The notes under the pieces were generated by a model that made no database searches, was not told the DNA's origin, and saw only the letters and a list, made by a program, of their open reading frames with translations. Positions 19,036 to 35,991 of a stretch of 64,000 nucleotides of DNA are shown in pieces; within the stretch, counting starts at the first letter, position 1; each line of letters starts with the position of its first letter. A program made the translations under genes and the position numbers. Source of the DNA: an uncultured Candidatus Saccharibacteria bacterium (GTDB lineage Bacteria; Patescibacteriota; UBA1384; JACPKC01); contig CAYRGD010000001.1 in NCBI GenBank assembly GCA_964423885.1, positions 89,653 through 153,652 on the forward strand. Reading direction: 5' to 3'.

Positions 19036-19049
19036 GAAGCGAGTCTACC

Positions 19050-20213
19050 ATGTGGTACAGTCCGGTCATGCACCGGCTTCTGGCAGCGATCTTCGTAGTC
19101 CTCGCGCTCTTGGCTCCGGCCGCGCATGCCGACGAGCCCATCTTCGAGACGCAGGCAGATGATGCTGCAGCGTACGACGAGACGGCGCTCCCTACCCTGC
19201 CGCCCGACGAGTACGCCCGCGCCCGCGTGCTTGAGGTGCTCGACCAGGGCGTACGCGACGGCGGCAGTACCGAACTCCCCTATCAGACGCTCAAGGCCCG
19301 GGTGTTGTCCGGCCCGGCCCGCGGCCAGGAGCTGACCGTGGACAACGGCACGCTTTTTTCGGTGTCCGACGGCCAGCTGCTCCGGCCGGGAGAAACCTTC
19401 GTGCTGGTTACGACGTACGCTGGCGACGGCACACCGCTCTACGCCGCGGGCGACCGGTACCGCCTGCCGCTCCTTGGCTGGTTCGTGGCCGGATTCCTGG
19501 TGCTGGTCGGCGCCGTGGCCCGACGCCGCGGCCTCCTATCGTTCCTGGGGCTCGCCGTGAGTGTCGGGATGCTCGCGCTCTACACCGTGCCGCAGCTGGC
19601 CGCGGGCGCTCCCCCGCTGCCAGTCACTTTGCTGACCGCAGCGGTGATCGTATTGGCTACGCTCTACCTTGCGCACGGGTTTACGCGTGACACGACGCTC
19701 GCGGTGGTAAGCACTGCCGGCACGCTGGTATTGGCAGGAACCATGGCCGCGGGTGCCGTGGCGCTCGCCCACCTGACCGGCGGCGGCACCGAGGATGCCC
19801 TTAGCCTGCAGTTCGGCCAGGCGGGCGTCGACCTCAAGGGCCTGTTCCTGGCCGGCATATTGGTAAGTGTGATCGGCGTGCTCGACGATATCACTACCGG
19901 GCAGACGGCCGTGGTGCGCGAGTTGCGTGCGGCCAATCCCACCCTGGGCCCGGCCGAGCTGTTCCGCCGTGCCTCGCTCGTGGGCCGTGAACATATCGCC
20001 TCGCTCGTGAATACGCTCGCGCTCGCCTACGCCGGCGTCTCGCTGCCGTTGTTCCTGGTGCTCGCGTCGAACCCGCAGCCGCTTTGGCTGGCAATGAATA
20101 GCGAATTCTTTGCCGAAGAGCTTGTCCGGACGCTGGTCGGCAGTGCCGCGTTGGTACTGGCGGTGCCGCTGTCGACCGCGCTCGCCGCCTGGTACGGCCG
20201 CACCGATCAGTAG
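19050..20213 (+). CDS. YibE/F-family integral membrane protein
   Basis: Signal peptide, ~110-aa extracytoplasmic domain, then multi-TM region with a GVLDDITTGQTAVV motif typical of YibE/F. The 3' end overlaps the first SBBP gene by 7 nt (convergent). Confidence 0.7.
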   Translation: MWYSPVMHRLLAAIFVVLALLAPAAHADEPIFETQADDAAAYDETALPTLPPDEYARARVLEVLDQGVRDGGSTELPYQTLKARVLSGPARGQELTVDNGTLFSVSDGQLLRPGETFVLVTTYAGDGTPLYAAGDRYRLPLLGWFVAGFLVLVGAVARRRGLLSFLGLAVSVGMLALYTVPQLAAGAPPLPVTLLTAAVIVLATLYLAHGFTRDTTLAVVSTAGTLVLAGTMAAGAVALAHLTGGGTEDALSLQFGQAGVDLKGLFLAGILVSVIGVLDDITTGQTAVVRELRAANPTLGPAELFRRASLVGREHIASLVNTLALAYAGVSLPLFLVLASNPQPLWLAMNSEFFAEELVRTLVGSAALVLAVPLSTALAAWYGRTDQ

Positions 20214-22816
20214 TGGGCGGTCACGTTGTAGGTGATCGTCGTGGCGTAGGCGCCGGCTGTGGTGTCCGGGCTCATGTTGGCGATGTAGCTCACAGTGTAC
20301 GTGGTCAGGCTGCTCACGCCCGGCGCTTGGGCGATGCTGTCGCCACCGACCGCGAACTTGAACTGGTTGGCAGTCTGGTACCCGCTCATCGCGGCGCCCG
20401 TTCCCCCGCTCGGGGCCGCACCGAAGTCGGCGGCGGTGTGCGACCCGGCCGCTGTGTTGGCCACAAGGTTGAAGCCGAACTGCTTGCTGCCGAGCATACT
20501 CGTTGCTTGGCTGGCCATCGCCGTAATCGTGTTGCCGCCATTCGTGAGCGTGGTCGTGGGCAGGTAACTTATCACGTAGCCGCCTGCGCCGTTGGTGCCG
20601 GCCGTTATCGTGTGGGTGCAGGCTTTGGTCTCGCTCGCCGACAGCACGCCCAGGCCGCAGCTCGCGGCGTCCACGGTAAAGTCGAAGCTGACGTTGATGA
20701 TCGTCTCGACCTCACCGGTGACGGTCACGGAATCTTCGGTGAGTTGCGCGACGAACGCGTCGGTGCTGGCAGCCTTGGTTCCTTGGAGCGGTACGGCGGT
20801 CGGCAGGTCGACCGACCCGGTTCCGCCGGTGACATACGCGTTGCCGGCAAGGCTGACTGCAAGCCCGAACCCTTGGTCGGTCCCGCCTCCTCCGAGGTAT
20901 GTCGAGTACTCGAACGCCGAACCGGCTGCGCTCACCTTCGTGACAAAGACATCCTGCGCGCCGCCGTTACTTGCCTGAAACGGCAAGACCGTTGGGAAGT
21001 TGGTAGAAAACGTTTCGCCCGCCACGTAGGCGTTCTCGTCCGCATCGAGCGCGATTGCGTACGCCGTCTCGCCGGCACTTCCTCCCAGATAGGTCGAATA
21101 CGTCAATGCGGATCCTGCAGCGTTGAACTTGGCGACGAACGCGTCGGAGCCACCCCCGTTGCCTGCCTGGATCGGCGCCGCGGTCGGGAAATCAGTGGAA
21201 GACGTATACCCGGTGACGTATATGTTCTTGTCGGTGTCCAACGTAATGGCCGTGGCATGGTCGGCCGCGCTGCCACCCAGATATGTGGCGTACGTGAGCG
21301 CCGTTCCGGTACTGTTGATCTTTGCCATGACCGCGTCGGTACCGCCTGCGTTCGCCGCCTGGTACGGCGTTGCCGTGGGAAAATCCGTCGACAGCGTGTC
21401 GCCCACGATGTAGGCGTTACCGATGTCGTCGACAGTGATGCCGTTGATCGTACTGCCGTCCGACGAGCTGCCGCCAAGGTATGTGCCATAGTCGAGCGAT
21501 GCTGCCCAGGGCGATAGCTTCGCGATGAACATGTCACTCGGGCCGGATAATGCCGCTTGGATTGGCGACGCGGTGGGGAGATCCGTCGACGTTGTCTGGC
21601 CTACGATATAGATACTCCCCTGCGGGTTGAGCGCCATCCCTTGGTAGCTCACGTTATCCGACCCGTTCCCGCCGAAATAACTGGAAAATTGCAGGCCCGA
21701 GCCGTCGTAATTGAGCTGGGTGACGAACACGTCGCCTCCGCCCCCGCCAAAGCTGCTCTGGTACGGTGACTGGACCGGAAAATCGGTCGAGGTGGTAAAG
21801 CCGGCCAGATAGATGCCGCCGTACAGATCGAGCCGGATCGCCCTTCCGTAGTCATTGTTGCTGCCGCCAAGATATGTCGCGTAGACCAACGCGGATCCCT
21901 CCCGATTGAGCTTGACGACGAACGCGTCGGTGTTCCCGGCATTGGAGCCTTGGGCCGGTGCGACGGTCGCGAAGTCCGTCGACTGGGTCTGGCCCACGAT
22001 GTAGGCGTTGCCGTTGACATCGAGCGTAATCGCATTGCCCTGGTCGATCCCGTTCCCGCCCAGATACGTGGCATATACCAGCGCCGGGTCGATAACCAGC
22101 GGTTTCGCCGGGTCGTACGTATCAGCCACGGCGACCGTGACAGTGCCGTCGTTCAGTTCGAAGCTGCTCGGGATGGTGTGTTTCTCGTGCTCGCCGGTTT
22201 GGTACGTGACCGGGGCATTCAGGGTCAGGGTATCGTCGCCGGCCTTGAGGATGAGGTTCCCGTTGCCATCAAGTGACAGATCGTCTTGCCCGGTGAAGCC
22301 GAAGGCGATTTGTTTGTAATTCGCACCGGGACTGACGATGAAGTCGTGTTCCAGCTGTGAGTTCGTGCCGTAGTAGGCGAGATCGATACCAGGATAGACA
22401 TCCTTGGCCAGCAGCTTGCCGTAGTTCGGGACATCCGACTGCCATTTCGACTGGTCGTTCCCGAGAAAGTAGTTCGTCTTCGATTGGAGTTCGTCGGTAC
22501 CGGCGAATTGCTGTTCCGCAGCGCCGGTGAGTGACATCGTCACCTGCTTCCCGCCCACACTGGTCGTGGTGCCCGTACTGGAAAACGCCGTCACGGCCTG
22601 GCCGTGGTGGACAAGGAAGTCTACCGATTCGTCCGCCTGACCTACGTTCGGTTCGAAGGCGAGCGGCAGTGTCGCGTAGGCGGCGTGCAGCGCGTCGGCG
22701 TCAGGTGTCGTGGATTGCGTCGCCGTACCGGGAACGAGCTGTAGTCGCAGCAGTACCAGCATCACGACAAGCGTGGCTGTGAGCATGCCGGTGCGACGGT
22801 GATCGTAGCGGGCCAT
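20207..22816 (-). CDS. secreted SBBP (beta-propeller) repeat protein, paralog 1
   Basis: SD AAGGAGGGGA. Signal peptide MARYDHRRTGMLTATLVVMLVLL. Conserved N-domain LAFEPNVGQADESVDFLVHHGQAVTAF...GIDLAYYGTNSQLEHDF. ~10 repeats of Y(S/A)TYLGG...G(I/L)A(V/L)D..GN.Y..G.T.S.DFPT. Conserved C-domain ending ...TTITYNVTAHY. Confidence 0.8.
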   Translation of the reverse strand: MARYDHRRTGMLTATLVVMLVLLRLQLVPGTATQSTTPDADALHAAYATLPLAFEPNVGQADESVDFLVHHGQAVTAFSSTGTTTSVGGKQVTMSLTGAAEQQFAGTDELQSKTNYFLGNDQSKWQSDVPNYGKLLAKDVYPGIDLAYYGTNSQLEHDFIVSPGANYKQIAFGFTGQDDLSLDGNGNLILKAGDDTLTLNAPVTYQTGEHEKHTIPSSFELNDGTVTVAVADTYDPAKPLVIDPALVYATYLGGNGIDQGNAITLDVNGNAYIVGQTQSTDFATVAPAQGSNAGNTDAFVVKLNREGSALVYATYLGGSNNDYGRAIRLDLYGGIYLAGFTTSTDFPVQSPYQSSFGGGGGDVFVTQLNYDGSGLQFSSYFGGNGSDNVSYQGMALNPQGSIYIVGQTTSTDLPTASPIQAALSGPSDMFIAKLSPWAASLDYGTYLGGSSSDGSTINGITVDDIGNAYIVGDTLSTDFPTATPYQAANAGGTDAVMAKINSTGTALTYATYLGGSAADHATAITLDTDKNIYVTGYTSSTDFPTAAPIQAGNGGGSDAFVAKFNAAGSALTYSTYLGGSAGETAYAIALDADENAYVAGETFSTNFPTVLPFQASNGGAQDVFVTKVSAAGSAFEYSTYLGGGGTDQGFGLAVSLAGNAYVTGGTGSVDLPTAVPLQGTKAASTDAFVAQLTEDSVTVTGEVETIINVSFDFTVDAASCGLGVLSASETKACTHTITAGTNGAGGYVISYLPTTTLTNGGNTITAMASQATSMLGSKQFGFNLVANTAAGSHTAADFGAAPSGGTGAAMSGYQTANQFKFAVGGDSIAQAPGVSSLTTYTVSYIANMSPDTTAGAYATTITYNVTAHY

Positions 22817-25523: not shown

Positions 25524-28157
25524 TCAGAAATTGGGCGTGATGATGTAGCGCATCCCGACCGCGTAGTAGCCGGCGGGGGTATTCGGCTGCACGTTGGCGA
25601 TATAGCTGGCCGTATAGGTGGTTTCCATGCTCGCCGTTGCCGACTCGGCTACTACGTCGCCGTTCGGATCGAACTTGAAGATGTCGCCGGTGTCGTAGTC
25701 GCTCGCGACCGTACCCGATCCCCCGCTTACGCCTGCGCCGAAGTCGGTGAGCGTCGACGCACCGGCGGCAGTATTCGTTGCCAGGTTCATGCCGAACTGC
25801 TCGGTGCCCGGTGTACTGCTGTCGGGCGTGGTCATGGGCGGCAAGTCTATGATCGGCCCTATCGGCCCCGACCCCGTGTACATATAGCTGATCGTGTAGC
25901 CGCCCGGCGCATTGGTGGCTGCTCTCATAGTGTGGTTGCAGAACACCGCATAGGCCGGTGAGAACGTGCCCAGGTCACAGTCGTAGCTACTTAAGGCAAA
26001 TGACAGGGTCGGATCGATGACGCCCGACGGTGCCACACCGGTCACGCCGACTGTGTACGCGGACAGTTGGGCCACGAACGCATCGGTGCCGCCGCCGCTC
26101 GTGCCTTGGAACGGCGCGACGGCCGGAAAATTGGCCGAGTTGGTCGACCCGGTAACAAACACATTGCCGTTCAAGCCGAGCGCGATCCGTGCTCCCGAGT
26201 CCGTGCTGCTCCCGCCAAAGTACGTTGAGTAGACAAGTGCCGTGCCGGCAGTATCGATTGCCGTAATGAATACGTCGATGCCGCCGCTATTGCCGCCTTG
26301 GTACGCTAATTCAACCGGAAAGTCGGTGGAAGTGGTTTGTCCGATGACGTACGCGTTCCCGCTCGCATCGACCACCAGGTTCGCGCCGACGTCGGTCCCA
26401 TTGCCGCCCAGGTAGGTGGAATAGGGTAGGGTCGAGCCCGCCGAATCGAGTTTCGTGACGAAGGCGTCGATGCCGCCGCCCCCAAGGCTGCCTTGGAACG
26501 GCGAGGACATCGGGAAGTTCGACGATCCGGTAAAGCCGGTGACGTACGCACTGCCTGTGCCGTCGACGGCGATGGACTGGCCGTTCTCGCTGCCGCTCCC
26601 GCCCAGGTAGGTCGAGTAGACCAGCGCCGAACCGGCAGCGTTCAGCTTGGTGACGAAGGCGTCTTGCCCGCCGCCGCTGCTTCCCTGGTACGGCGATGAG
26701 GTCGGGAAATCGGTCGAGGTCGTGGTGCCGGACAGGTAGGCATTTCCGCCCGCATCGACCGCGATGCCGTACGCACTGTCGCTACTGCCTCCGCCTAAAT
26801 AGGTAGCATAGGTGAGCGCCGAGCCGGCGGCGTTGAACTTGACCGCGAAGGCGTCGATCCCGCCCGCGTAGCTCCCCTGGATGGGCGAGACGGTCGGAAA
26901 GTTCGACGACAGCGTGTCACCAGCCACGTACGCGCTGCCTGCGGCGTCGACCGCGATACCCCGGGCCAGGTCGCTACTGCTCCCGCCCAGGTAGGTCGAG
27001 TAGACCAGCGCCGAACCGGCAGCGTTCAGCTTGGTGACGAAGGCGTCTTGCGATCCGTTCCGGCTTGCTTGGTAGGGAGACGAAGTCGGGAAATCGGTCG
27101 AGCTGGTCAAGCCGGCGAGGTACGCGTTGCCGTCGCCGTCGACCGCGATCCCGCCCGTATTCGACGGCGAGTCGTCGGCGCTGCCGCCCAGGTACGTGGC
27201 GTAGACCAGCGCCGAGCCGGCAGCGTTCAGCTTCGCCACGAAGACGTCGCGCGTGCCACCCGCGTTGCTGCCCTGGTACGGCGAGGCGGTGGGAAAGTCG
27301 CTCGAATCGGTAGAACCTACCACGTAGGCGTTCCCGTTCGCGTCGACCGCGATCCCGTAGCCGGTATCGCTCCCGCTCCCACCCAGATAGGTGGAATAGA
27401 CGAGCGCCGGGTCGATAATGAGCGGCTTCGCCGGGTCGTACGTGTCAGCCACGGCGACCGTGACTGTCCCATCGTTCAGTTCGAAGCGTGACGGAATCGT
27501 GTGCTTCTCGTGCTCCCCTGCCTGGTACGTGACCGGGGCGTTGAGCGTCAATGTCTCATCGCCGGCGTGCAAGACAAGGTTTCCCTGATCATTGAGCGAC
27601 AGGTCGTCTTGCCCGGTGAAACCGAACGCGATCTGCTTGTAATCCGCACCGGGACTGACGATGAAATCATGTTCCAGTTGCGAGTTCGTGCCGTAGTAGG
27701 CCAGGTCGATGCCGGGATACACGTCCTTGGCCAGCAGCTTGCCGTAGTTCGGGATATCCGACTGCCATTTCGACTGGTCGCTCCCTAGAAAGTAATTCGT
27801 CTTGCTTGGCAACTCGTCGGTACCGGAAAAATCCTGTTCCGCCGCGCCGGTGAGCGCCATCGTTACTTGTTTGCCTCCCATGCTTGTGGTCGTGCCACCA
27901 GATGAAAACGCCGTCACCGCGCGGCCGTGGTGCACCAGGTAACTCACTCCTCCGCCTGCCTGCCCCAGGTTCGGTTCGAACGCGAGTGGCAGGTCGGCAA
28001 AGGCGGCAGCCATTCCGGCACGGGCCGCATCGTCGGTGTGTGCGCCTTTAAGCTGCGGCGCGGCCAGGTCGGCTCCGAGCGCGAGCATAGCCAGCACCAG
28101 TGCGGCCGAGAGTCCGCGCCGCTGTACCATCTGCCTACGTGCCGGTGTGTTGCCCAT
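25524..28157 (-). CDS. secreted SBBP repeat protein, paralog 3
   Basis: SD GGAGGGGGAGGG. Start re-derived at MGNTPARRQMVQRRGLSAALVLAMLALG. ~10 very regular SBBP repeats. C-terminus ...YYAVGMRYIITPNF. Confidence 0.8.
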   Translation of the reverse strand: MGNTPARRQMVQRRGLSAALVLAMLALGADLAAPQLKGAHTDDAARAGMAAAFADLPLAFEPNLGQAGGGVSYLVHHGRAVTAFSSGGTTTSMGGKQVTMALTGAAEQDFSGTDELPSKTNYFLGSDQSKWQSDIPNYGKLLAKDVYPGIDLAYYGTNSQLEHDFIVSPGADYKQIAFGFTGQDDLSLNDQGNLVLHAGDETLTLNAPVTYQAGEHEKHTIPSRFELNDGTVTVAVADTYDPAKPLIIDPALVYSTYLGGSGSDTGYGIAVDANGNAYVVGSTDSSDFPTASPYQGSNAGGTRDVFVAKLNAAGSALVYATYLGGSADDSPSNTGGIAVDGDGNAYLAGLTSSTDFPTSSPYQASRNGSQDAFVTKLNAAGSALVYSTYLGGSSSDLARGIAVDAAGSAYVAGDTLSSNFPTVSPIQGSYAGGIDAFAVKFNAAGSALTYATYLGGGSSDSAYGIAVDAGGNAYLSGTTTSTDFPTSSPYQGSSGGGQDAFVTKLNAAGSALVYSTYLGGSGSENGQSIAVDGTGSAYVTGFTGSSNFPMSSPFQGSLGGGGIDAFVTKLDSAGSTLPYSTYLGGNGTDVGANLVVDASGNAYVIGQTTSTDFPVELAYQGGNSGGIDVFITAIDTAGTALVYSTYFGGSSTDSGARIALGLNGNVFVTGSTNSANFPAVAPFQGTSGGGTDAFVAQLSAYTVGVTGVAPSGVIDPTLSFALSSYDCDLGTFSPAYAVFCNHTMRAATNAPGGYTISYMYTGSGPIGPIIDLPPMTTPDSSTPGTEQFGMNLATNTAAGASTLTDFGAGVSGGSGTVASDYDTGDIFKFDPNGDVVAESATASMETTYTASYIANVQPNTPAGYYAVGMRYIITPNF

Positions 28158-28170
28158 CCCTCCCCCTCCG

Positions 28171-30750
28171 TCAGTAGTTCGCCACAATAGTATACGTTAC
28201 GAGGGTGGCATATGTCCCGGCCTCGCTCACCGACGTGATGTTGGCGATGAACGACGCATTGTAGAACGTGGTCAGGCTGGGGCCTGCGGTGTAGGCGACC
28301 GGATCCCCGCCGACCGCAAAGGTGAACTCGTCGGGCGTATCGTATCCGGCGAGCGCGACGCCCGTGCCAAGATACGGGTCGAAGCCGAAGCCGCTGTTGG
28401 CCACCAGGTTCATGCCGAACTGCTCGGTGCCCGGGTTGCTCACGTCCTGGACAGCCATGGCGTCGATCGTATTCGGCCCGCTCGTGAGCGTGGTGGTCGG
28501 CACGTAGCTCACTACGTAGCCGCCCGGGGCGTTCGAGCCCGCGTGCAGGCCGTGCGTGCAGTGCGAGACGTAGCTGTCGTTGAACGTACCCATGTTGCAG
28601 GTGGTGTCGTCGAGCGCGAATTCAAGCGTGGGGTCGATCGTGCCGGTGACCGTTATCGTCTCGCCGACCAGAAACTCCGCTATGAACGCGTCAGTGCCGC
28701 CGGCAATGCTCGCCTGGAACGGCGTTGCGGTCGGGAAGTTCGCCGAGTCGGTCCAGCCTGACGCGTACAGGCGGTGGTTGCGCAGGTATAGGCCGGCGAT
28801 CTGGTCAAAACCGCTCCCGCCCACATACGACGAGAACGTGATGCTGCTGCCGTCCGGTGCGAATTTTGTCAGGAAACCGTCGGCGCTGCCGCCGTTGCTT
28901 GCCTGGAATGCGCCTAGGATTGGGAAGTTCGTCGAGTCGGTGCGCCCTGACAGGTAGACGCTGTCGGCATCGTCGACCAGGAGGCGGTAAGCGGCATCCA
29001 AGCCCGATCCACCCAGATACGTCGAAAAGACAGGTGCCGCACCGGTCGGATCCAGCTTGATCAGGAACGCGTCGTACGCACCGCCGCCGTAGGTCGGCTG
29101 GAGCGCTGCCACGGTCGGGAAGCCGCCCTGGGTGATGCCTGTGACGTAGATATCGCCGCCGGTACCAAGGACGATGCCGTCGCCTTCGTCGTCGCCCGCG
29201 CCGCCAAAGTAGGTCGAGTACAGGAGCGACGAGCCTGTGGGGTTGAACTTGGCTACGAAGCCGTCTACGCCGCCGTTGTGGCTGCCGTCGTACGCGCTTG
29301 CCATCGGGAAGTTCGACGAGCTGGTCCGACCGGTGGCATACACGTTCTGGTCGTCATCCACCGCTATGCCGATCACCCACTCGCTCCCGTTGCCGCCAAG
29401 GTAGGTTGCGAAGACGAGTGCCGAGCCGCTGGGGTTCAGCTTGCCCAGCCAGGCGTCATTCGTAATGCCGCCGTCAGAGAGGGTCGTCTGGAATGCGCCG
29501 GGCGTGGCGAGCGCGTTGTTGTTGCCGGTGGCGCCGCCCATGTAAACGTTGCCGTCGTCGTCGATATTGATCACTTGTATGTCGGTCGCCGGTGACTCGC
29601 CGACGTACGTGGAATACACGAGCGATCCACCAGTCGGGTCGAGTTTCGTCACGAAGCCGCCGTTGGTGCCGGCCTTCACCGTTTGGAACGCCCCGGCGGT
29701 GGTTGGATAGTCGGTCGAGCCTGTCGTGCCGCCGACGTAGGCGTTGCCACCGGTATCCACGCGCAGGCCGCGCAGCTGTTCGAAGCCGGCGCCACCTAAG
29801 TAGGTGCTGTAGAGAAGTGTCGCGCCGTCGCTGCTGAATTTCGAGACGAATCCGTCGTTTCCGGCACTATAGGAACCGTCATAGGCTCCCATGATGGGCA
29901 GGTCGGACGACGCGGTCTCGCCGGCGATGTACATGTTGCCTGCTCCGTCGACCTCCATGCCGAAGCTCTGTTCGTTCCCGGTTCCGCCAAAATAGGTGCC
30001 GTAGTGCAAGACGAGTACCGGGTCGATGATGAGCGGCTTCGCCGGATCGTACGTATCAGCCACGGCGACCGTGACGGTGCCGTCGTTCAGTTCGAAGCTG
30101 CTCGGGATCGTGTGCTTCGAATTGGTGTCGGTCTGGTACGTGACCGGGGCGTTGAGGGTCAGGGTGTCGTCGCCGGCCTTGAGGATGAGGTTCCCGTCGC
30201 CATCAAGCGACAGATCGTCTTGCCCGGTGAAACCGAACGCGATCTGCCGGTAATCCACGCCGGGGGCCACAATGAAGTCGTGTTCCAGTTGGGAATTGGT
30301 GCCGTAGTAGGCCAGGTCGATACCGGGATAGACGTTGTTCGCCACCAGCTTGCCGTAGTTCGGGATATCCGATTGCCATTTCGACTGGTCGTTGCCAAGG
30401 AAGTAGTTCGTCTTACTCGGAAGCTCGTCGGTACCGGCAAAGTCCTGTACCGCCGCACCGGTGAGCGACATCGTCACCTGCTTTCCGCCGACGCTGGTCG
30501 TGGTACCGGTCGAAGAAAACGCCGTCACGGCCTGGCCGTGATGGACAAGGAAGTCTACTGATTCGTCCGCCTGACCTACGTTCGGTTCGAAGGCGAGCGG
30601 TGCCCGTGCGTAGGCGGCTTCGGCCGCGTTCGTCGCCGCTTGGTCCGTATCGGCAGTATCGGGTGCCTGCTGCGGCGCGGCGATACGGAGCCCGAGCAGT
30701 TGCACCAGTACCACCAGGGTGACAGCCGTTATCCGTTGTCTGGCGATCAT
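28171..30750 (-). CDS. secreted SBBP repeat protein, paralog 4
   Basis: Signal peptide MIARQRITAVTLVVLVQLLGL. N-domain is nearly identical to paralogs 1, 3 and 6. C-terminus ...YATLVTYTIVANY. Confidence 0.8.
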   Translation of the reverse strand: MIARQRITAVTLVVLVQLLGLRIAAPQQAPDTADTDQAATNAAEAAYARAPLAFEPNVGQADESVDFLVHHGQAVTAFSSTGTTTSVGGKQVTMSLTGAAVQDFAGTDELPSKTNYFLGNDQSKWQSDIPNYGKLVANNVYPGIDLAYYGTNSQLEHDFIVAPGVDYRQIAFGFTGQDDLSLDGDGNLILKAGDDTLTLNAPVTYQTDTNSKHTIPSSFELNDGTVTVAVADTYDPAKPLIIDPVLVLHYGTYFGGTGNEQSFGMEVDGAGNMYIAGETASSDLPIMGAYDGSYSAGNDGFVSKFSSDGATLLYSTYLGGAGFEQLRGLRVDTGGNAYVGGTTGSTDYPTTAGAFQTVKAGTNGGFVTKLDPTGGSLVYSTYVGESPATDIQVINIDDDGNVYMGGATGNNNALATPGAFQTTLSDGGITNDAWLGKLNPSGSALVFATYLGGNGSEWVIGIAVDDDQNVYATGRTSSSNFPMASAYDGSHNGGVDGFVAKFNPTGSSLLYSTYFGGAGDDEGDGIVLGTGGDIYVTGITQGGFPTVAALQPTYGGGAYDAFLIKLDPTGAAPVFSTYLGGSGLDAAYRLLVDDADSVYLSGRTDSTNFPILGAFQASNGGSADGFLTKFAPDGSSITFSSYVGGSGFDQIAGLYLRNHRLYASGWTDSANFPTATPFQASIAGGTDAFIAEFLVGETITVTGTIDPTLEFALDDTTCNMGTFNDSYVSHCTHGLHAGSNAPGGYVVSYVPTTTLTSGPNTIDAMAVQDVSNPGTEQFGMNLVANSGFGFDPYLGTGVALAGYDTPDEFTFAVGGDPVAYTAGPSLTTFYNASFIANITSVSEAGTYATLVTYTIVANY

Positions 30751-30766: not shown

Positions 30767-33352
30767 TTAGTAGTTGGCCACGATCGTGTACGTGACCGGC
30801 GTGCTGTACGCCCCGGCCTCGCTCGCGATCGTGATGTTGGCGATGAAGCTCACGGTGAAACTGGTGGTCAGGCTCGGGCCGGCTGATTGGGCGATGCTGC
30901 CTCCGGCCGTCGCGAACTTGAACAGGTTGGCCGTTTGATACCCGCTCAAGGCTGCGCCGCTCCCGCCGCTGGGCGCGGCGCCGAAGTTGCCCGCGGTGTG
31001 CGACCCGGCAGCAGTGTTGGCCGCCAAGTTGAAGCCGAATTGCTCGGTGCCGGTGACGCTCGCCGCTTGGCTCGGCATCGCGTCGATGGTGAACGGGCTG
31101 CTCGTGAGCGTCGTACCGGGCACGTAGTTGACGGTGTAGCCGCTGGGCGCGTTGGTGGCGACGCTGAACGTATGCGTGCAGTACTTGGTTTCGGTTGCCG
31201 AAAAGTGCCCCAGGTCACATAGGTTCGATCCGAGCGTAAAGGTGACCAGCGGATCGGCGATCCCGGTAACCATGAACGGCGTGTCGGCTATCTGGGCCAC
31301 GAAGGCGTCGTTCCCGCCCGCGTTCGTTGCCTGGAGTGCCGACTGGACAGGAAAGTCGGTCGAGCTTGCCATTCCGGTCAGGTATACATTCCCGTTGCTG
31401 CCGACCGCGGCCCGGAGCGAGTAGTCGACGTTGCTGCCGCCCAGGTAGGTCGAATACAGCACCGTGCTCGTGTCGGCACTCAATTTCATAGCAAAGGCAT
31501 CCGTGCTGCCGCCGTAGGTCGCTTGGTATGGCAAAACCGTCGGGAAGTTGTCCGACGAGGTCCCGCCCGAGATGTGCGCCTGGTTCGCGGCGTCGAACGC
31601 GATCCCAAGGCCTTCGTCCCAGCCATTGCCGCCCCAGTAGGTGGAAAACAGGACCGTCTGGCCGTCGGGGCTGAATTCGGTAATGAACATGTCGTGCTCG
31701 CCCGCGAAGCTCGCCTGCAGCGGATTCACCAGCGGGAAGTTAGGTGCCGGCGTACCGCCCACCACCCACCCGTTGCCATCGTTGTCGATCGCGATGCCTG
31801 CGCCGTACTCGTTAATGCCGGTGCCGCCCAGGTAGGTAATAAACTCGGGCGTACCGTCGGTATCGAACTTGGCCACGAACGCGTCCCCGTCTCCGCCACC
31901 GAACGCTGGCTGGTAGGGATTCAACAGAGGGAAGCCGTTGTCGACAGCGCCGGTAATCCAGGTGTCCCCGCTCTCGCTCACCTCCATGCCGAACGAGGCG
32001 AATTCAGGGCCTGGGCCGCCCAAGTAGGTGGCGTAGCTTAACGCCGATCCGGCGGGATTCAGTTTCGCCAGATAGAAGTCGGCACCGCCTCCGTTGGCGG
32101 CTTGGTACGGCGATTCGAGCGGCATATCAGTGGAATTCGTGTCACCGAAGATGTAGGCGTTGCCGCTCGCGTCGGTATCGATGACACGGACTCCGTCATC
32201 GCCCGAGCCGCCCAGGTAGGTGGAGTAGACCAGGGCCGATCCGGCGGGATTCAGTTTGGTCACGAAGATATCCCCGTCGCCGGCATTGCTCGCCTGCAGG
32301 GCCGAGGCGGTCGGGAAATCGGTCGACTTCGTGTTGCCGGTCACATAGGCATTGCCGCTGGTATCGACGTGCAGGCTCCAACCCTCGTCATTGCCGGTGC
32401 CGCCCAGGTAGGTGGAGTACAGAATGGCTGTTCCTGCCGCATTGAGCTTCGTAACGAAGGCGTCCGTGTCGCCGTTATAGCTGCCGTCGTACGGCGACCC
32501 TGTGGGAAAGTCGGTCGAGTCGGTTTTGCCGGTGACGTAGACGTTCCCGCTACTGTCGACCTTGATGTCGGTGGCGCGTTCGTCGCCCGTGCCGCCGAGG
32601 TAGGTCGAGTAGACGAGCGACGGGTCGATCACGAGCGGCTGGTTCCGATCATAGGTGTCGGCGACAGCGATCGTGACCGTGCTGCCGTCGAGTTCAAAAC
32701 GGCTGGGCACCGTGTGTTTGGCCGCGTCGGTTCCCTGGTAGCTCACCGGGGCATTGAGCGTGAGTTCGCGATCGCCCACCGCAAGTACCAGGTTGCCGTC
32801 GGCATCGAGCCGTAGGCTGTCGGCCCCCGAGAACGATACCGCGATCTGCCGGTAGTCGGCGCCAGGCTGCACGATAAAGTCGTGTTCGAGCGCGTTTCCT
32901 GTGCCGTAGTAGCGTACGTCGATGCCCGGATAGACGCCGGTGGCAACGAGCGCGCCGAAGTTCGGCACGTCGGTATGCCACGCGGCCGGGTCGTTGCCGC
33001 GGAAGTAGTTGGTTGTCGATGCGAGCTCGTCCTCGCCGTGCAAGGCCTGCGGCGCGGCACCGTCGAGCGTCATCGCTACCTTCGCGCCGCCGATACGCGT
33101 GACCGTACCGCCATCGTGGAACGCGGTAACCGCCTGCCCGTGGTGCACCACATAGCTGGTGCTATCGCCCGCTTGGCCGACGTTTGGCTCGAATACGAGC
33201 GGCAGATTGCCGAACCGTGTCGTAGCCGCAGCCCCTGGTGCGCTACTGTTGGGTAGCGGGAGAGCAGCCAGGTCTTGGGCAACCAGGCCGCAGATGAGCA
33301 CGAAGGCCGAAGCAACGGCGGCGCGGGGCAACGGGGTGTGGCGGTTGGTCAT
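30767..33352 (-). CDS. secreted SBBP repeat protein, paralog 5
   Basis: The track ORF runs to 33778, but the real start is MTNRHTPLPRAAVASAFVLICGLVA (SD GAGGA). The upstream in-frame extension overlaps the 3' end of paralog 6 and is Arg/His-rich junk. Confidence 0.75.
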   Translation of the reverse strand: MTNRHTPLPRAAVASAFVLICGLVAQDLAALPLPNSSAPGAAATTRFGNLPLVFEPNVGQAGDSTSYVVHHGQAVTAFHDGGTVTRIGGAKVAMTLDGAAPQALHGEDELASTTNYFRGNDPAAWHTDVPNFGALVATGVYPGIDVRYYGTGNALEHDFIVQPGADYRQIAVSFSGADSLRLDADGNLVLAVGDRELTLNAPVSYQGTDAAKHTVPSRFELDGSTVTIAVADTYDRNQPLVIDPSLVYSTYLGGTGDERATDIKVDSSGNVYVTGKTDSTDFPTGSPYDGSYNGDTDAFVTKLNAAGTAILYSTYLGGTGNDEGWSLHVDTSGNAYVTGNTKSTDFPTASALQASNAGDGDIFVTKLNPAGSALVYSTYLGGSGDDGVRVIDTDASGNAYIFGDTNSTDMPLESPYQAANGGGADFYLAKLNPAGSALSYATYLGGPGPEFASFGMEVSESGDTWITGAVDNGFPLLNPYQPAFGGGDGDAFVAKFDTDGTPEFITYLGGTGINEYGAGIAIDNDGNGWVVGGTPAPNFPLVNPLQASFAGEHDMFITEFSPDGQTVLFSTYWGGNGWDEGLGIAFDAANQAHISGGTSSDNFPTVLPYQATYGGSTDAFAMKLSADTSTVLYSTYLGGSNVDYSLRAAVGSNGNVYLTGMASSTDFPVQSALQATNAGGNDAFVAQIADTPFMVTGIADPLVTFTLGSNLCDLGHFSATETKYCTHTFSVATNAPSGYTVNYVPGTTLTSSPFTIDAMPSQAASVTGTEQFGFNLAANTAAGSHTAGNFGAAPSGGSGAALSGYQTANLFKFATAGGSIAQSAGPSLTTSFTVSFIANITIASEAGAYSTPVTYTIVANY

Positions 33353-33363
33353 GGGATCCTCGC

Positions 33364-35991
33364 TTAGTAGTTCACGACGATGGTGTACGTGATCGGCGTG
33401 CTGTACGCGCCCGCCTCGGTGACCGCCGTGATGTTGGCGATGTACGACACGGTGTACGTGGTGGGCTCGGACGCCCCGGTGGTGTGGGCGAGATCCGCCC
33501 CAGCTACGGTGAACTTGAACTGGTTGGCGGTCTGGTACCCGCTCAAGACCGCGCCCGATCCCCCGCTTGGGCCCGCCCCGAAGTTGCTCGTGGTATGCGA
33601 CCCGGCGGCAGTGTTGGCCACCAGGTTCATGCCGAACTGCTCGCTGCCGACTGTGCTGCCGGTTTGGCTCGCCATCGCGTCGATCGTACTGCCACCGTTC
33701 GTGAGCGTGCCAGTGGCTGTGTGGCTCACGACGTAGCCGCCCCCAGCGTTGCTCGCCGCGCTCATGGTGTGGGTGCACGCTACGGTGCCGTTCGGCGAAA
33801 AGTGCCCTAGGTCGCAGAGCGTCGAGCCCAAGGCGAACGCCAGGATCGGGTCGGCAACGCCGTCGACCGTCAGCGATTGCTGGTCGGGATCGTAGGGCAG
33901 CTCGGACAACTTGACCAAGAAGCTGTCGGTACTGCCGCCGTACGTTCCCTGGAACGGCAGCAGGGTCGGGAAGTTCGACGACGCGGTGTGGCCAACGATG
34001 TGCGCGTTTCCGCTACCGTCGAGCGACACGTCGGTTGCGAGATCGTTTCCACTGCCTCCCAAGAAGGTAGAGTAGATCAGCGCCGAGCCGGCCGGATCAA
34101 GTTCGGTAATGAACGCGTCCCCGCCCCCGGCATTGCTTGCTTGGTAGGGTGATCCTGCGGTCGGAAAGTCGGATGATTCCGTAAAGCCGACAACGTATGC
34201 GTTCCCCGAGGCACCGATGGCGACGTCGACGCCCGAGTCGAGCGCGCTCCCGCCCAGGTACGTCGAGTAGACGAGCGCGGTACCGGACGCATTCACTTTG
34301 GCGACGAACGCGTCCCTGGTGCCGCCGCCATAGGTGTCCTGGAATGCCGCTTCGGTCGGGAAATCGGCGGAGGCTGTCCAGCCGGAGACATAGGCCTCGC
34401 CGGTGTTCGCGACCTTGATGCGGATGCCGTCGTCGTTTCCGCTTCCGCCGAGGTATGTCGAGTAGACGAGCGCCGTGCCCGACGGGTTCAACTTCGCAAT
34501 GACGACATCAGCGTCGCCAGCGCTACTTCCCTGGATCGGCGAGGCAGTCGGAAAATCGGTCGACTGGGTGTAACCGGTGATGTACGCACTGCCCGACGCG
34601 TCGACGTCGATGTCGTATCCATGCTCATACACGCTCCCGCCGAGGTACGTCGAGTAGACGAGCGCCGTGCCGGACGGGTTGAGTTTCGTGACAAACATAT
34701 CGCCGAAGCTATTCAAACTTCCCTGGATCGGTGACGCGGTCGGAAAGTCCGTCGACTGGCTGTCGCCGGTCACGTAGGCATTGCCAGCGCCGTCGACCGC
34801 GATGCCGTCGGGCAGGTCGTAGTTGCTCCCACCCAAATACGTGGAATATACGAGCGACGAGCCGGACGGGTCGAGCTTGGTCACGAAGCCGGTGCCAATG
34901 CTGCCTGGGTTCGGCTTGGCGCCTTGGAATGCGGATTCAGTCGGAAAGTCGCTCGAGTTGGTCGCGCCGGTGATATATACGTTACCGGACGCATCCACCG
35001 CGAACTTCCGGGATTCCTCGTTCTCGCTCCCGCCGAGGTACGTCGCGTAGATGAGTGCGGTACCGGCGGCGTTCAACTTGGCCACGAACGCATCCTGGCC
35101 GCCGCTCTTGCTTCCCTGGTACGGCGACCCTGCGGTCGGGAAATCGGTCGAGGTAGTATTCCCGTGGATATACAGGTTGCCGGACGAATCGACCACGACG
35201 CCATGCGAACGGTCTTCGCCGCTCCCACCCAGGTAGGTCGAGTAGACCAAGGTTGGGTCGATAACCAGTGGTTTCGCCGGGTCGTACGTATCCGCCACGG
35301 CGACCGTAACGACGCCGTCGTGCAGTTCAAAGTTACTCGGGATCGTGTGCTTCGAATTGGTGTCGATCTGGTACGTGACCGGGGCATTGAGCGTCAGGGT
35401 ATCGCCGCCCGCTTTCAAAACGAGGTTGCCGTCATCGTCCAAGGCCAGGTCGTCCTGCCCGGTAAAGCCGAAGGCGATCTGCCGGTAATCCACGCCGGGG
35501 GCCACAATGAAGTCGTGTTCCAACTGGGAATTCGTGCCGTAGTAGGCCAGGTCGATGCCGGGATAGACGTTGTTCGCCACCAGCTTGCCGTAGTTGGGAA
35601 TATTGCGTTGCCATTGGGATTGGTCGTTGCCGATAAAGTAATTGGTGTTCGATGCGAGTTCGTCGGTACCGGCAAAGTCCTGTGCCGAGGCGCCGGTCAA
35701 CGTCATCGCGATCTGTTTCCCGCCCACGCTCGTCGTGGTGCCAGTGCTGGAAAACGCCGTGACCGCTTGGCCGTGGTGTACCAGGAAGTCCACGGAGTCG
35801 TCCATCTGGCCGAGGTTCGGTTCGAACGCGAGCGGGAGATCGGCCAGTCCGGCGCGGCTCGTTGCTGCCTGCTCCGTGGGCACTGTCTGTCGCTCGGCGG
35901 CGATACGCAGGCCCAGGCAGGGCAGCGCGATAAGAAGCGCGAGCGCGGCGCGGCGGGTAGCGGTGTGGGTGCGGAACGTGCGTGCGGCCAT
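33364..35991 (-). CDS. secreted SBBP repeat protein, paralog 6
   Basis: SD GGAGGGA. Signal peptide MAARTFRTHTATRRAALALLIALPCLGL. Same architecture. C-terminus ...YSTPITYTIVVNY. Confidence 0.8.
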   Translation of the reverse strand: MAARTFRTHTATRRAALALLIALPCLGLRIAAERQTVPTEQAATSRAGLADLPLAFEPNLGQMDDSVDFLVHHGQAVTAFSSTGTTTSVGGKQIAMTLTGASAQDFAGTDELASNTNYFIGNDQSQWQRNIPNYGKLVANNVYPGIDLAYYGTNSQLEHDFIVAPGVDYRQIAFGFTGQDDLALDDDGNLVLKAGGDTLTLNAPVTYQIDTNSKHTIPSNFELHDGVVTVAVADTYDPAKPLVIDPTLVYSTYLGGSGEDRSHGVVVDSSGNLYIHGNTTSTDFPTAGSPYQGSKSGGQDAFVAKLNAAGTALIYATYLGGSENEESRKFAVDASGNVYITGATNSSDFPTESAFQGAKPNPGSIGTGFVTKLDPSGSSLVYSTYLGGSNYDLPDGIAVDGAGNAYVTGDSQSTDFPTASPIQGSLNSFGDMFVTKLNPSGTALVYSTYLGGSVYEHGYDIDVDASGSAYITGYTQSTDFPTASPIQGSSAGDADVVIAKLNPSGTALVYSTYLGGSGNDDGIRIKVANTGEAYVSGWTASADFPTEAAFQDTYGGGTRDAFVAKVNASGTALVYSTYLGGSALDSGVDVAIGASGNAYVVGFTESSDFPTAGSPYQASNAGGGDAFITELDPAGSALIYSTFLGGSGNDLATDVSLDGSGNAHIVGHTASSNFPTLLPFQGTYGGSTDSFLVKLSELPYDPDQQSLTVDGVADPILAFALGSTLCDLGHFSPNGTVACTHTMSAASNAGGGYVVSHTATGTLTNGGSTIDAMASQTGSTVGSEQFGMNLVANTAAGSHTTSNFGAGPSGGSGAVLSGYQTANQFKFTVAGADLAHTTGASEPTTYTVSYIANITAVTEAGAYSTPITYTIVVNY

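Follow-up and report, generated by a model that had tools for sequence, protein, structure and literature searches.

Tandem arrays in which a few genes are alike in one segment, and no closer than the rest elsewhere, pose the question whether these genes are young copies of a single gene, old copies held alike by selection, or distinct genes that have exchanged the shared segment. We addressed this question for an array of eight genes in a 64,000-nucleotide (nt) stretch of DNA, hereafter the window, from an uncultured Candidatus Saccharibacteria bacterium (contig CAYRGD010000001.1, positions 89,653 to 153,652); the source genome is that of an ultrasmall, high-GC (guanine plus cytosine), Saccharibacteria-like member of the Patescibacteria, and the named relatives of the eight paralogs come from metagenome-assembled genomes (MAGs) of Patescibacteria and Saccharibacteria. 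The 5' regions of four of the paralogs, namely, P1, P3, P4 and P6, are conspicuously similar, which an earlier note on this DNA attributed to gene conversion or very recent duplication. We consider it likely that the shared segment, which encodes the DUF7948 domain, was spread by old exchange between paralogs, with later shuffling of short tracts and under strong purifying selection, and the encoded proteins may be displayed on pili.

The array and its shared block

The array occupies 20.2-41.3 kb of the window and consists of eight tightly packed, head-to-tail open reading frames (ORFs) on the minus strand that encode proteins of 859-907 amino acids: P1 (20207-22816; 869 amino acids from its ATG), P2 (22893-25514), P3 (25524-28157), P4 (28171-30750), P5 (30767-33352), P6 (33364-35991), P7 (36002-38614) and P8 (38624-41251). 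All eight are full-length, with an ATG start and a basic, then hydrophobic N-terminus that resembles a signal peptide. A GGAG-type Shine-Dalgarno sequence lies upstream of seven, the exception being P7, with none within the 40 nt shown; the spacers to the upstream stop codon measure 9-20 nt, apart from 76 nt between P2 and P1. The mechanical ORF call for P5 (30767-33778) extends 426 nt 5' of the real ATG at 33352, in another frame, into the 3' end of P6; the true start is this ATG rather than the GTG at 33778, and the longer ORF is an artefact of a kind that ORF calling often produces in high-GC DNA; the two genes do not overlap.

The shared block was delimited in a codon-aware alignment of the eight genes, with identities computed per domain columns and borders set by a sliding-window identity scan. 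It comprises the 595-nt DUF7948-coding module, at positions 22075-22669 in P1 (delimited by Pfam as well as by the scan), 27398-27992 in P3, 30009-30603 in P4 and 35244-35838 in P6, all on the minus strand, and its edges are sharp: identity rises about five codons before the motif LPLAFEPN and drops right after the residues IDP. Within the module, DNA identity is 85.7% for P1-P4, 81.8% for P4-P6, 81.1-82.5% for P1-P3 (the upper value for the P1 copy as delimited above), 80.1% for P3-P4, 79.3% for P1-P6 and about 75% for P3-P6, whereas any pair involving P2, P5, P7 or P8 shows 58-68% in the same columns. Elsewhere, P1, P3, P4 and P6 are no more similar to each other than other pairs are, with 54-64% identity in the propeller-coding part, where P4 is the most divergent of the group, and 52-70% in that of the C-terminal domain. 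The block stands 10-25 percentage points above the family background, and its similarity exceeds chance. Self-BLAST, used as the equivalent of a dot plot, connects non-adjacent copies, with 21974-22684 matching 29902-30618 (81.9% over 720 nt) and 21776-22684 matching 27087-28007 (77.2%). The grouping proposed in the earlier note, eight tandem paralogs with a high-identity set of 5' regions in P1, P3, P4 and P6 and clearly more divergent counterparts in P2, P5, P7 and P8, is borne out by these comparisons.

The block is thus real and well above background, yet it is weaker and shorter than first described. The claimed identity of 85-90% compares with 75.0-85.7% in the core block, where only P1-P4 attains the upper value, and with 73.8-84.2% over the intervals for which the claim was made; the term near-identical does not suit copies in which exact sharing extends over at most 49 nt (P4-P6), followed by tracts of 41 nt (P1-P4) and 38 nt. 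The sequence example that was quoted for all four copies is present in P1 (22589-22666) and matches between P1 and P4 apart from a single difference within the two strings quoted and the position that was left open, but P6 has 13 mismatches to it and P3 fails to match even when 8 substitutions per part are allowed. The stated extent was about 90 nt too long at the 5' end: the stretch that includes the start codon and encodes the signal peptide or leader (22670-22816 in P1, minus strand) falls in the interval given by the earlier note but lies outside the block, has a sliding identity of only 35-60% and is almost unalignable between copies.

Age of the block and probable exchange among paralogs

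Divergence at synonymous positions places the common ancestry of the four blocks well before the present. For pairs among P1, P3, P4 and P6, nonsynonymous divergence (dN) in the N-domain is 0.07-0.18 and NG86 synonymous divergence (dS) is 0.54-0.98, with a dN/dS ratio (omega) of 0.12-0.18; the corresponding propellers have a saturated dS of 1.1-1.44 and an omega of 0.29-0.42, and across the propeller and pilin domain omega is 0.3-0.55. Four-fold degenerate sites were counted in codons whose first two bases agree. Pooled over the six pairs, 333 of 534 such sites (0.62) are identical in the N-domain and 366 of 770 (0.48) in the propeller; pair by pair, the values inside the block are 56-72%, compared with about 43-50% at saturation, and the baselines are 0.38 for composition alone and approximately 0.43 for the N-domain against the other genome described below. 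Because the four-fold sites are unsaturated in the N-domain and near saturation in the propeller, the N-domains are younger than the gene bodies: they coalesce later, yet they are far from recent copies. Even the youngest tracts have a dS of roughly 0.1, against 0.5-1.0 for the N-domain overall.

Synonymous sites also reveal how much of the identity is due to selection. The related DNA that we used for comparison comes from one MAG, JAYRIO (Patescibacteria isolate SZ_szas25bin.55, loci L001-L003, GC content 61-64%), in which a corresponding N-domain subfamily (P0031, P0032 and L001) shows 81-84% protein identity and 76-77% DNA identity with four-fold sites saturated at 0.42-0.43. Since DNA identity is maintained at about 76% despite this saturation, purifying selection alone sustains about three quarters identity, and only the excess above that level in the window reflects younger shared ancestry. 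Strong purifying selection on DUF7948 accounts for much of the identity of the block.

The excess is accompanied by a conflict between domains. In bootstrapped neighbour-joining trees built separately for the N-domain, propeller and C-domain of the window paralogs and the JAYRIO proteins, the N-domains of P1, P3, P4 and P6 form a clade with 100% support, as do those of P0031 and P0032 from JAYRIO, and the grouping of P3 with P0031 receives 0%. In the propeller tree, by contrast, P3 joins P0031 and P7 joins L002a, each at 100%, and the clade of P1, P3, P4 and P6 receives 0%; P3 and P0031 are again united at 100% in the C-domain tree. The two proteins are mutual best matches in the propeller (63-64% amino acid identity) and the C-domain (57%), so that the body of P3 is assigned to an orthologue in the other genome, but their N-domains are only 71% identical. 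Thus, the N-domains group by genome and the bodies by orthology, a pattern that is the classical signature of concerted evolution or of the replacement of one module. The body of P7 is similarly orthologous to the first gene of JAYRIO L002 (597-3209), with 68% identity in the propeller and 69% in the C-domain, whereas the N-domain is not, with only 53%; this pair indicates an independent swap or replacement of the N-domain within the family. In JAYRIO itself, inspection of the protein sequences by eye shows that the N-domain of P0034 (L003:6070-8656) resembles that of its neighbour P0032 in the first half and is of a divergent type after YGTNS.LEHDFIV, the four-fold-site identity between P0032 and P0034 being 0.62, which suggests a recombination breakpoint inside DUF7948 in the second genome.

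Relatives outside the window, which were compared as proteins, extend the modular pattern. The P4 protein was found on a contig of 292,834 bp that carries at least three further paralogs beyond the window (P0007, P0010 and the truncated P0067, which has 651 amino acids, a tail that looks out of frame and no C-domain), and additional close relatives lie on contigs of 156,802, 140,578 and 19,348 bp. The repertoire amounts to eight genes in the window, at least 11 on the contig and six more proteins of the same N-domain subtype on the three other contigs, be they from the same genome or not. Altogether, the N-domain subtype is common to 13 proteins at 75-95% amino acid identity, and propeller identity among them is only 40-63%. 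Of the 13, nine lie outside the window, and eight of these nine carry what we denote the type II C-domain (79-92% identical among themselves), whereas the four window copies have four divergent C-domains; P0007, whose N-domain matches that of P1 at 95% identity, nevertheless possesses this different, nearly invariant C-domain. A scan of genome contigs with the N-domain profile showed JAYRIO to be closest (73-76% amino acid identity), most of the 80 loci listed being DUF7948 proteins of Acidobacteriota and Planctomycetota; a scan of metagenome contigs yielded distant relatives, at most 63% identical, among the matches listed.

Inside the block, the four copies do not follow a single history. 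Their alignment contains 52 parsimony-informative sites that support three mutually incompatible partitions (P1 and P4 against P3 and P6; P1 and P3 against P4 and P6; P1 and P6 against P3 and P4), and these fall in runs along the N-domain (runs test on the partition labels, p=5e-5). The pairwise homoplasy index (PHI) lies below its permutations both for the four copies (p=0.0015) and for all eight genes (p=0.0005). Multi-nucleotide codon changes were considered as the source of this signal and rejected, given that it persists when a single site is taken from each codon (p=0.0002-0.02) and when the sites are limited to third positions (p=0.004-0.09). The tracts involved are short. The youngest between P1 and P4 (22581-22666 and 30515-30600; 86 nt, 97.7% identical) holds the 41-nt exact match as well as the example quoted in the earlier note; the youngest between P4 and P6 (30239-30360 and 35474-35595; 122 nt, 96.7%) holds the 49-nt and 38-nt exact matches; and a 200-nt tract shared by P1 and P3 at 90.5% (22281-22480 and 27604-27803) coincides with the block of sites that unite these two against P4 and P6. 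All these tracts are on the minus strand. As maximal-scoring segments, P4 further contains 194 nt that match P1 at 90.7% and, embedded, 65 nt that match P6 at 95.4%, and its N-domain is a mosaic of P1-like and P6-like segments. The case for recombination rests on the clustering of incompatible sites and not on any one tract.

Gene conversion or concerted evolution, as the earlier note had it, is therefore supported as an old process at the level of the domain, both by the conflict between trees and by the clustered incompatible sites: paralogs within a genome are closest in the N-domain and have flanks that follow orthology, and the N-domain itself is a mosaic. On this reading, one N-domain subtype spread by non-reciprocal recombination, be it gene conversion or domain replacement, among paralogs with propeller and pilin parts that are much older and unrelated in detail; the incongruence of the domain trees shows that this took place once the lineage had separated from that of JAYRIO. 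Subsequent exchanges of roughly 65-200 nt shuffled variants among the four copies and left P4 to alternate between P1-like and P6-like sequence. Strong purifying selection (omega about 0.12-0.18) has held DUF7948 near constant during the divergence of the propeller and pilin domain (omega 0.3-0.55). That the exchange is ongoing, as had also been suggested, is not what the data indicate: the youngest tracts of 86-122 nt already carry 2-4 substitutions each, the longest exact tract is 49 nt, and the test for long identical runs discussed below is non-significant after correction.

Very recent tandem duplication, which would make P1, P3, P4 and P6 young copies and the block the part that has not yet diverged, could account for the full bootstrap support of the four N-domains and for the location of the genes in one array, but it is already refuted by the synonymous divergence of the block itself (dS 0.54-0.98, with four-fold identity of 56-72%). 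Moreover, outside the block, in the signal-peptide region, propeller and C-domain, these genes resemble each other only at the level of family background or saturation; the copies are non-adjacent, with divergent paralogs interspersed among them; P3 has a body whose orthologue is found in JAYRIO; and no exact shared tract exceeds 49 nt. We assign next to no probability to this scenario. Alternatively, a P3-like gene might have been duplicated as a whole once the JAYRIO lineage had split off, with the propeller and pilin domain of P1, P4 and P6 then diverging very fast under diversifying selection and the N-domain remaining constrained; this explains the N-domain clade without any transfer of domains, the propellers of P1, P3 and P6 are slightly closest to each other (50-56% amino acid identity, against 37-50% for other pairs), and diversifying selection on variable binding heads is common in adhesin families. 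However, the four-fold sites are saturated in the propeller and not in the N-domain, and the C-domain of P6 is nearest to that of P7 (72% amino acid and 73.6% DNA identity), whose lineage has its own orthologue in JAYRIO, whereas P3 and P4 have C-domains of different deep subtypes. Furthermore, the same N-subtype also sits on proteins with the quite different type II C-domain, and the mosaic within the N-domain requires recombination in any case; we therefore hold this alternative to be improbable. Unlikely, too, is a history without recombination, in which an old N-domain subtype is merely under much stronger purifying selection than the rest. The difference in omega, the 76-77% DNA and 81-84% protein identity that JAYRIO maintains with fully saturated four-fold sites, and the small synonymous excess of P3-P6 all speak for it, but it has to contend with the four-fold identity of 0.62 versus 0.48 in the same pairs, with the clustering of incompatible partitions, with full support for grouping by genome in one domain and by orthology in others, and with the N-domain of the P7 pair, which is less conserved than the body.

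The last alternative is technical. The contig was assembled from a metagenome, its nearest relatives with a name are MAGs, and repeated gene families are known to be difficult for assemblers, so that the mosaic N-domains might be chimeras that arose when paralogs or strain variants were joined or collapsed. This is very improbable: exact repeats between paralogs do not exceed 49 nt and are shorter than the final k-mers and the reads of a typical assembly, none of the eight ORFs is interrupted or out of frame, the spacers between them are a regular 9-76 nt, the contig is long, and the same modular pattern is found in independently assembled genomes. For the same reason of repeat length, the locus is unlikely to be the hotspot of assembly collapse that it had been taken for. 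Several points nevertheless weigh against spread of the module by exchange. The comparison at the DNA level relies on one genome, JAYRIO, with three short contigs; neighbour-joining on saturated distances could misplace fast-evolving bodies; and post-split duplication followed by accelerated divergence of the gene bodies is, strictly speaking, still an alternative, if an improbable one. The four-fold excess of P3-P6 is small (0.56 in the N-domain against 0.49 in the propeller), and selection alone could explain most of the identity of this pair. A GENECONV-type longest-run test is non-significant after Bonferroni correction for 28 pairs (best raw p=0.008), and no single conversion tract is individually proven.

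Old exchange does not make the array a contingency-type family, a label that the earlier note had applied to it. Apart from the 192-nt blade repeats, Tandem Repeats Finder (TRF) detected just two trivial arrays of 12-18 nt in P7, and the homopolymers or short tandem repeats of simple-sequence-repeat phase variation were not seen in the 5' regions; tblastn recovered no paralog fragments outside the eight genes that could serve as silent or truncated cassettes of the pilE/pilS, vlsE or msp2 type. An inversion of the shufflon or fimS type is not apparent either, the array containing a single weak inverted repeat (33 nt, 79% complementary) that lies within coding sequence, and a scan of neighbouring genes revealed no recombinase. 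A scan for promoters and terminators gave 3 promoter-like sites where 3.2 are expected by chance; two of these are located just upstream of P1 and P3, and we do not count them as evidence.

Domain architecture and a candidate link to Pam pili

All eight proteins are built on one plan, exemplified by P1, with a signal peptide, DUF7948, a 7-blade-type SBBP propeller and a C-domain of the Pam pilin type. DUF7948 (PF25778) scores 168-176 bits in P1, P3, P4 and P8, with E-values of about 1e-50 (1.5e-51 in P1), far above the Pfam gathering threshold of 27 bits; the N-domains of P2, P5 and P8 are divergent from the shared subtype. The SBBP repeats (PF06739) are also above threshold at 79-195 bits (E 1e-22 to 1e-58, 3-7 repeats scored), and repeat scans give a blade period of 192 nt. 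The C-domain passes the NCBIfam model CPR_Pam_pilin_C (NF058581; cutoff 55 bits) with 119.3 bits in P1 (residues 722-875 of 875) and 111.6 bits in P6 (724-875); the Pam pilin C-domain profile matches all eight paralogs, and a pair of cysteines in the domain is conserved. An AlphaFold2 model of P1 with a predicted local distance difference test (pLDDT) score of 85 shows a beta-rich N-domain at approximately 50-243, the propeller at 248-692, a low-confidence linker at 696-709 and the C-domain at 711-869, and the solved structure closest to the whole model is the CylK propeller (E=4e-22). DUF7948 alone is modelled confidently (pLDDT 93.6); a fold search with this model gave only weak matches (E 4e-3 or worse, template-modelling score at most 0.47), to beta-supersandwich domains of polysaccharide lyases and glycosidases, from which no function was inferred. 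A sequence search of the PDB with the C-domain returned only spurious filamin matches (E 0.013 or worse), and the LipL53 equivalog of Leptospira (NF047494) is not reached, with 84.6 and 100.5 bits against a cutoff of 400.

Within the propeller of P3, a perfect 73-nt direct repeat (26595-26667 and 26979-27051) lies between two SBBP blades, the copies being 384 nt, or two blades, apart inside a TRF array at 26587-27248. No exact repeat in the array is longer, and this one points to a blade-to-blade duplication or conversion within one gene that was more recent than any exchange of N-domains.

The Pam pilus is a filament system of bacteria of the candidate phyla radiation (CPR) that was described in a 2026 preprint (10.64898/2026.03.03.709456), according to which the pilin C-domain is a truncated Ig-like fold that the adjacent subunit completes with its linker strand through donor-strand exchange, and PamT is proposed to be a single-domain acceptor at the tip. 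The preprint makes no mention of propeller fusions, adhesins or paralog arrays, and neither there nor in a search of the full-text literature did we find tandem arrays of fusions between DUF7948, a propeller and a Pam pilin domain. When the C-domain profile was compared to 1.84 billion proteins, 1029 cluster representatives were retrieved; all of the 150 best matches listed extend to within a few residues of the C-terminus of the protein, and these 150 are mostly pilins of 230-375 amino acids, with about 18 fusions of more than 600. The window proteins are best read as candidate adhesins carried by Pam pili, with alternative propeller heads. They would be displayed by donor-strand complementation of the C-terminal pilin domain, much as FimH and PapG are on chaperone-usher pili; the variable propellers might serve as alternative binding heads and DUF7948 as a constant structural adaptor of the propeller module, the latter role being a guess. 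A strand of the VTVTG type precedes the C-domain in the model, with low confidence. The eight proteins may sit at the tip, the location that we infer, or within the shaft. Evidence against display on pili exists as well: the 64-kb window contains no genes for Pam chaperones or shaft pilins, the C-domain profile finds no further Pam pilin genes there besides the eight paralogs, and the proteins remain below the cutoff of the PamT equivalog (NF058579), with 105 and 102 bits against 240, matches confined to model positions 72-241 and a length of about 870 amino acids, compared with about 240.

The comparison with characterized Pam subunits defines both the likeness and the departure. Like PamA, PamB, PamE and PamT of Candidatus Mycosynbacter amalyticus (10.64898/2026.03.03.709456), the window proteins belong to CPR/Patescibacteria and have a C-domain that passes the Pam pilin model, and like PamT they may act as donor-strand acceptors. 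Unlike Pam pilins, which consist of 230-500 amino acids and have an N-domain that is a nine-strand beta-sandwich or none at all, they comprise about 870 amino acids with DUF7948 and a propeller, and the window lacks pam operon genes. With the two-domain tip adhesins FimH and PapG, in which a receptor-binding domain at the N-terminus is followed by a pilin domain whose fold a donor strand completes, they share a Sec signal peptide and a layout in which a large, putatively binding module at the N-terminus is fused to a pilin-type domain at the C-terminus. They have, however, no sequence relationship to Fim or Pap proteins, and the organism possesses neither outer membrane nor usher; the binding module is DUF7948 plus a 7-blade-type beta-propeller of about 650 amino acids rather than a lectin-type beta-barrel, and there are eight tandem alternatives instead of one. 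The widespread N-terminal module of DUF7948 and SBBP repeats is the same as in proteins of Acidobacteriota, Planctomycetota and others and in the Leptospira LipL53 family, but those DUF7948-SBBP proteins end in other modules (Ig-like, PKD and others in the Pfam lists), whereas the window proteins end in a Pam pilin domain.

Genomic setting and implications

The array is embedded among chromosomal housekeeping genes, which encode a UvrD/PcrA-type helicase-nuclease, MazG, DUF4349, NrdJ, FtsA/FtsZ, SecD/F, TGT and a YibE/F-like membrane protein. The gene for the latter (19050-20213, plus strand; PF07907, E=2.9e-63) is convergent with P1 and separates the array from the helicase gene; a pseudogene remnant that had been considered at 19036-20206 was rejected, this plus-strand gene being there and tblastn showing no paralog fragments. 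In JAYRIO L003, an ORF for a UvrD-like helicase, known only from an AQRQAI-type motif, directly follows the array, and the window array has a helicase beyond it as well. Elsewhere in the window, a tRNA gene (1208-1286, plus strand; Rfam 47.4 bits) cannot be assigned by ARAGORN, which reports a four-base anticodon, cacc, and the anticodon loop looks oversized by eye; the tRNA could be unusual, frameshift-suppressor-like or a mis-call. Two adjacent large ATPases (2905-8237, plus strand) weakly match coupling proteins of type IV secretion systems of the VirD4/TraG/TrwB type, in keeping with reports of conjugation-like type IV secretion systems in Patescibacteria (PMC12102498).

Where segmental gene conversion acts together with purifying selection, tandem paralogs that are alike in a single domain are a textbook result. 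Concerted evolution by segmental gene conversion is well known in surface-protein paralogs, such as babA/babB/babC of Helicobacter pylori and tprC/D/F/I of Treponema pallidum. As in these systems, the window genes have highly similar segments at one end and a differing central, presumably ligand-binding part, the shared segment is closer between paralogs within a genome than between orthologues of different genomes, and the mosaic tracts measure tens to hundreds of bases. In contrast to them, the four window genes share the N-domain only, not the signal-peptide region or the 3' end; the exchange is old (dS 0.5-1.0), without near-identical tracts longer than 49 nt; and the array shows no evidence of expression switching or of an arrangement of silent donors and an expression site.

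Accordingly, the mechanism is ordinary for families of surface proteins, and the gene family itself, which is newly described, is the more interesting lead. The practical value of the analysis is a corrected annotation of the block: 75-86% identity, confined to DUF7948, old and an improbable site of misassembly. One might go further and propose that DUF7948 is both a structural adaptor and a homology handle for recombination, which would let host-dependent Patescibacteria maintain and reshuffle a large set of propeller heads on Pam pili, such that the array would be the modular host-range locus of an epibiont and would encode the first FimH-like, adhesin-carrying Pam subunits; we regard this extension as speculative and rather doubtful. 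The separate histories of the N-domain, the propeller and the pilin domain show the building of a repertoire by module exchange, and, should the proteins indeed be carried by Pam pili, the host-recognition step of epibiotic Patescibacteria would gain candidates in them.

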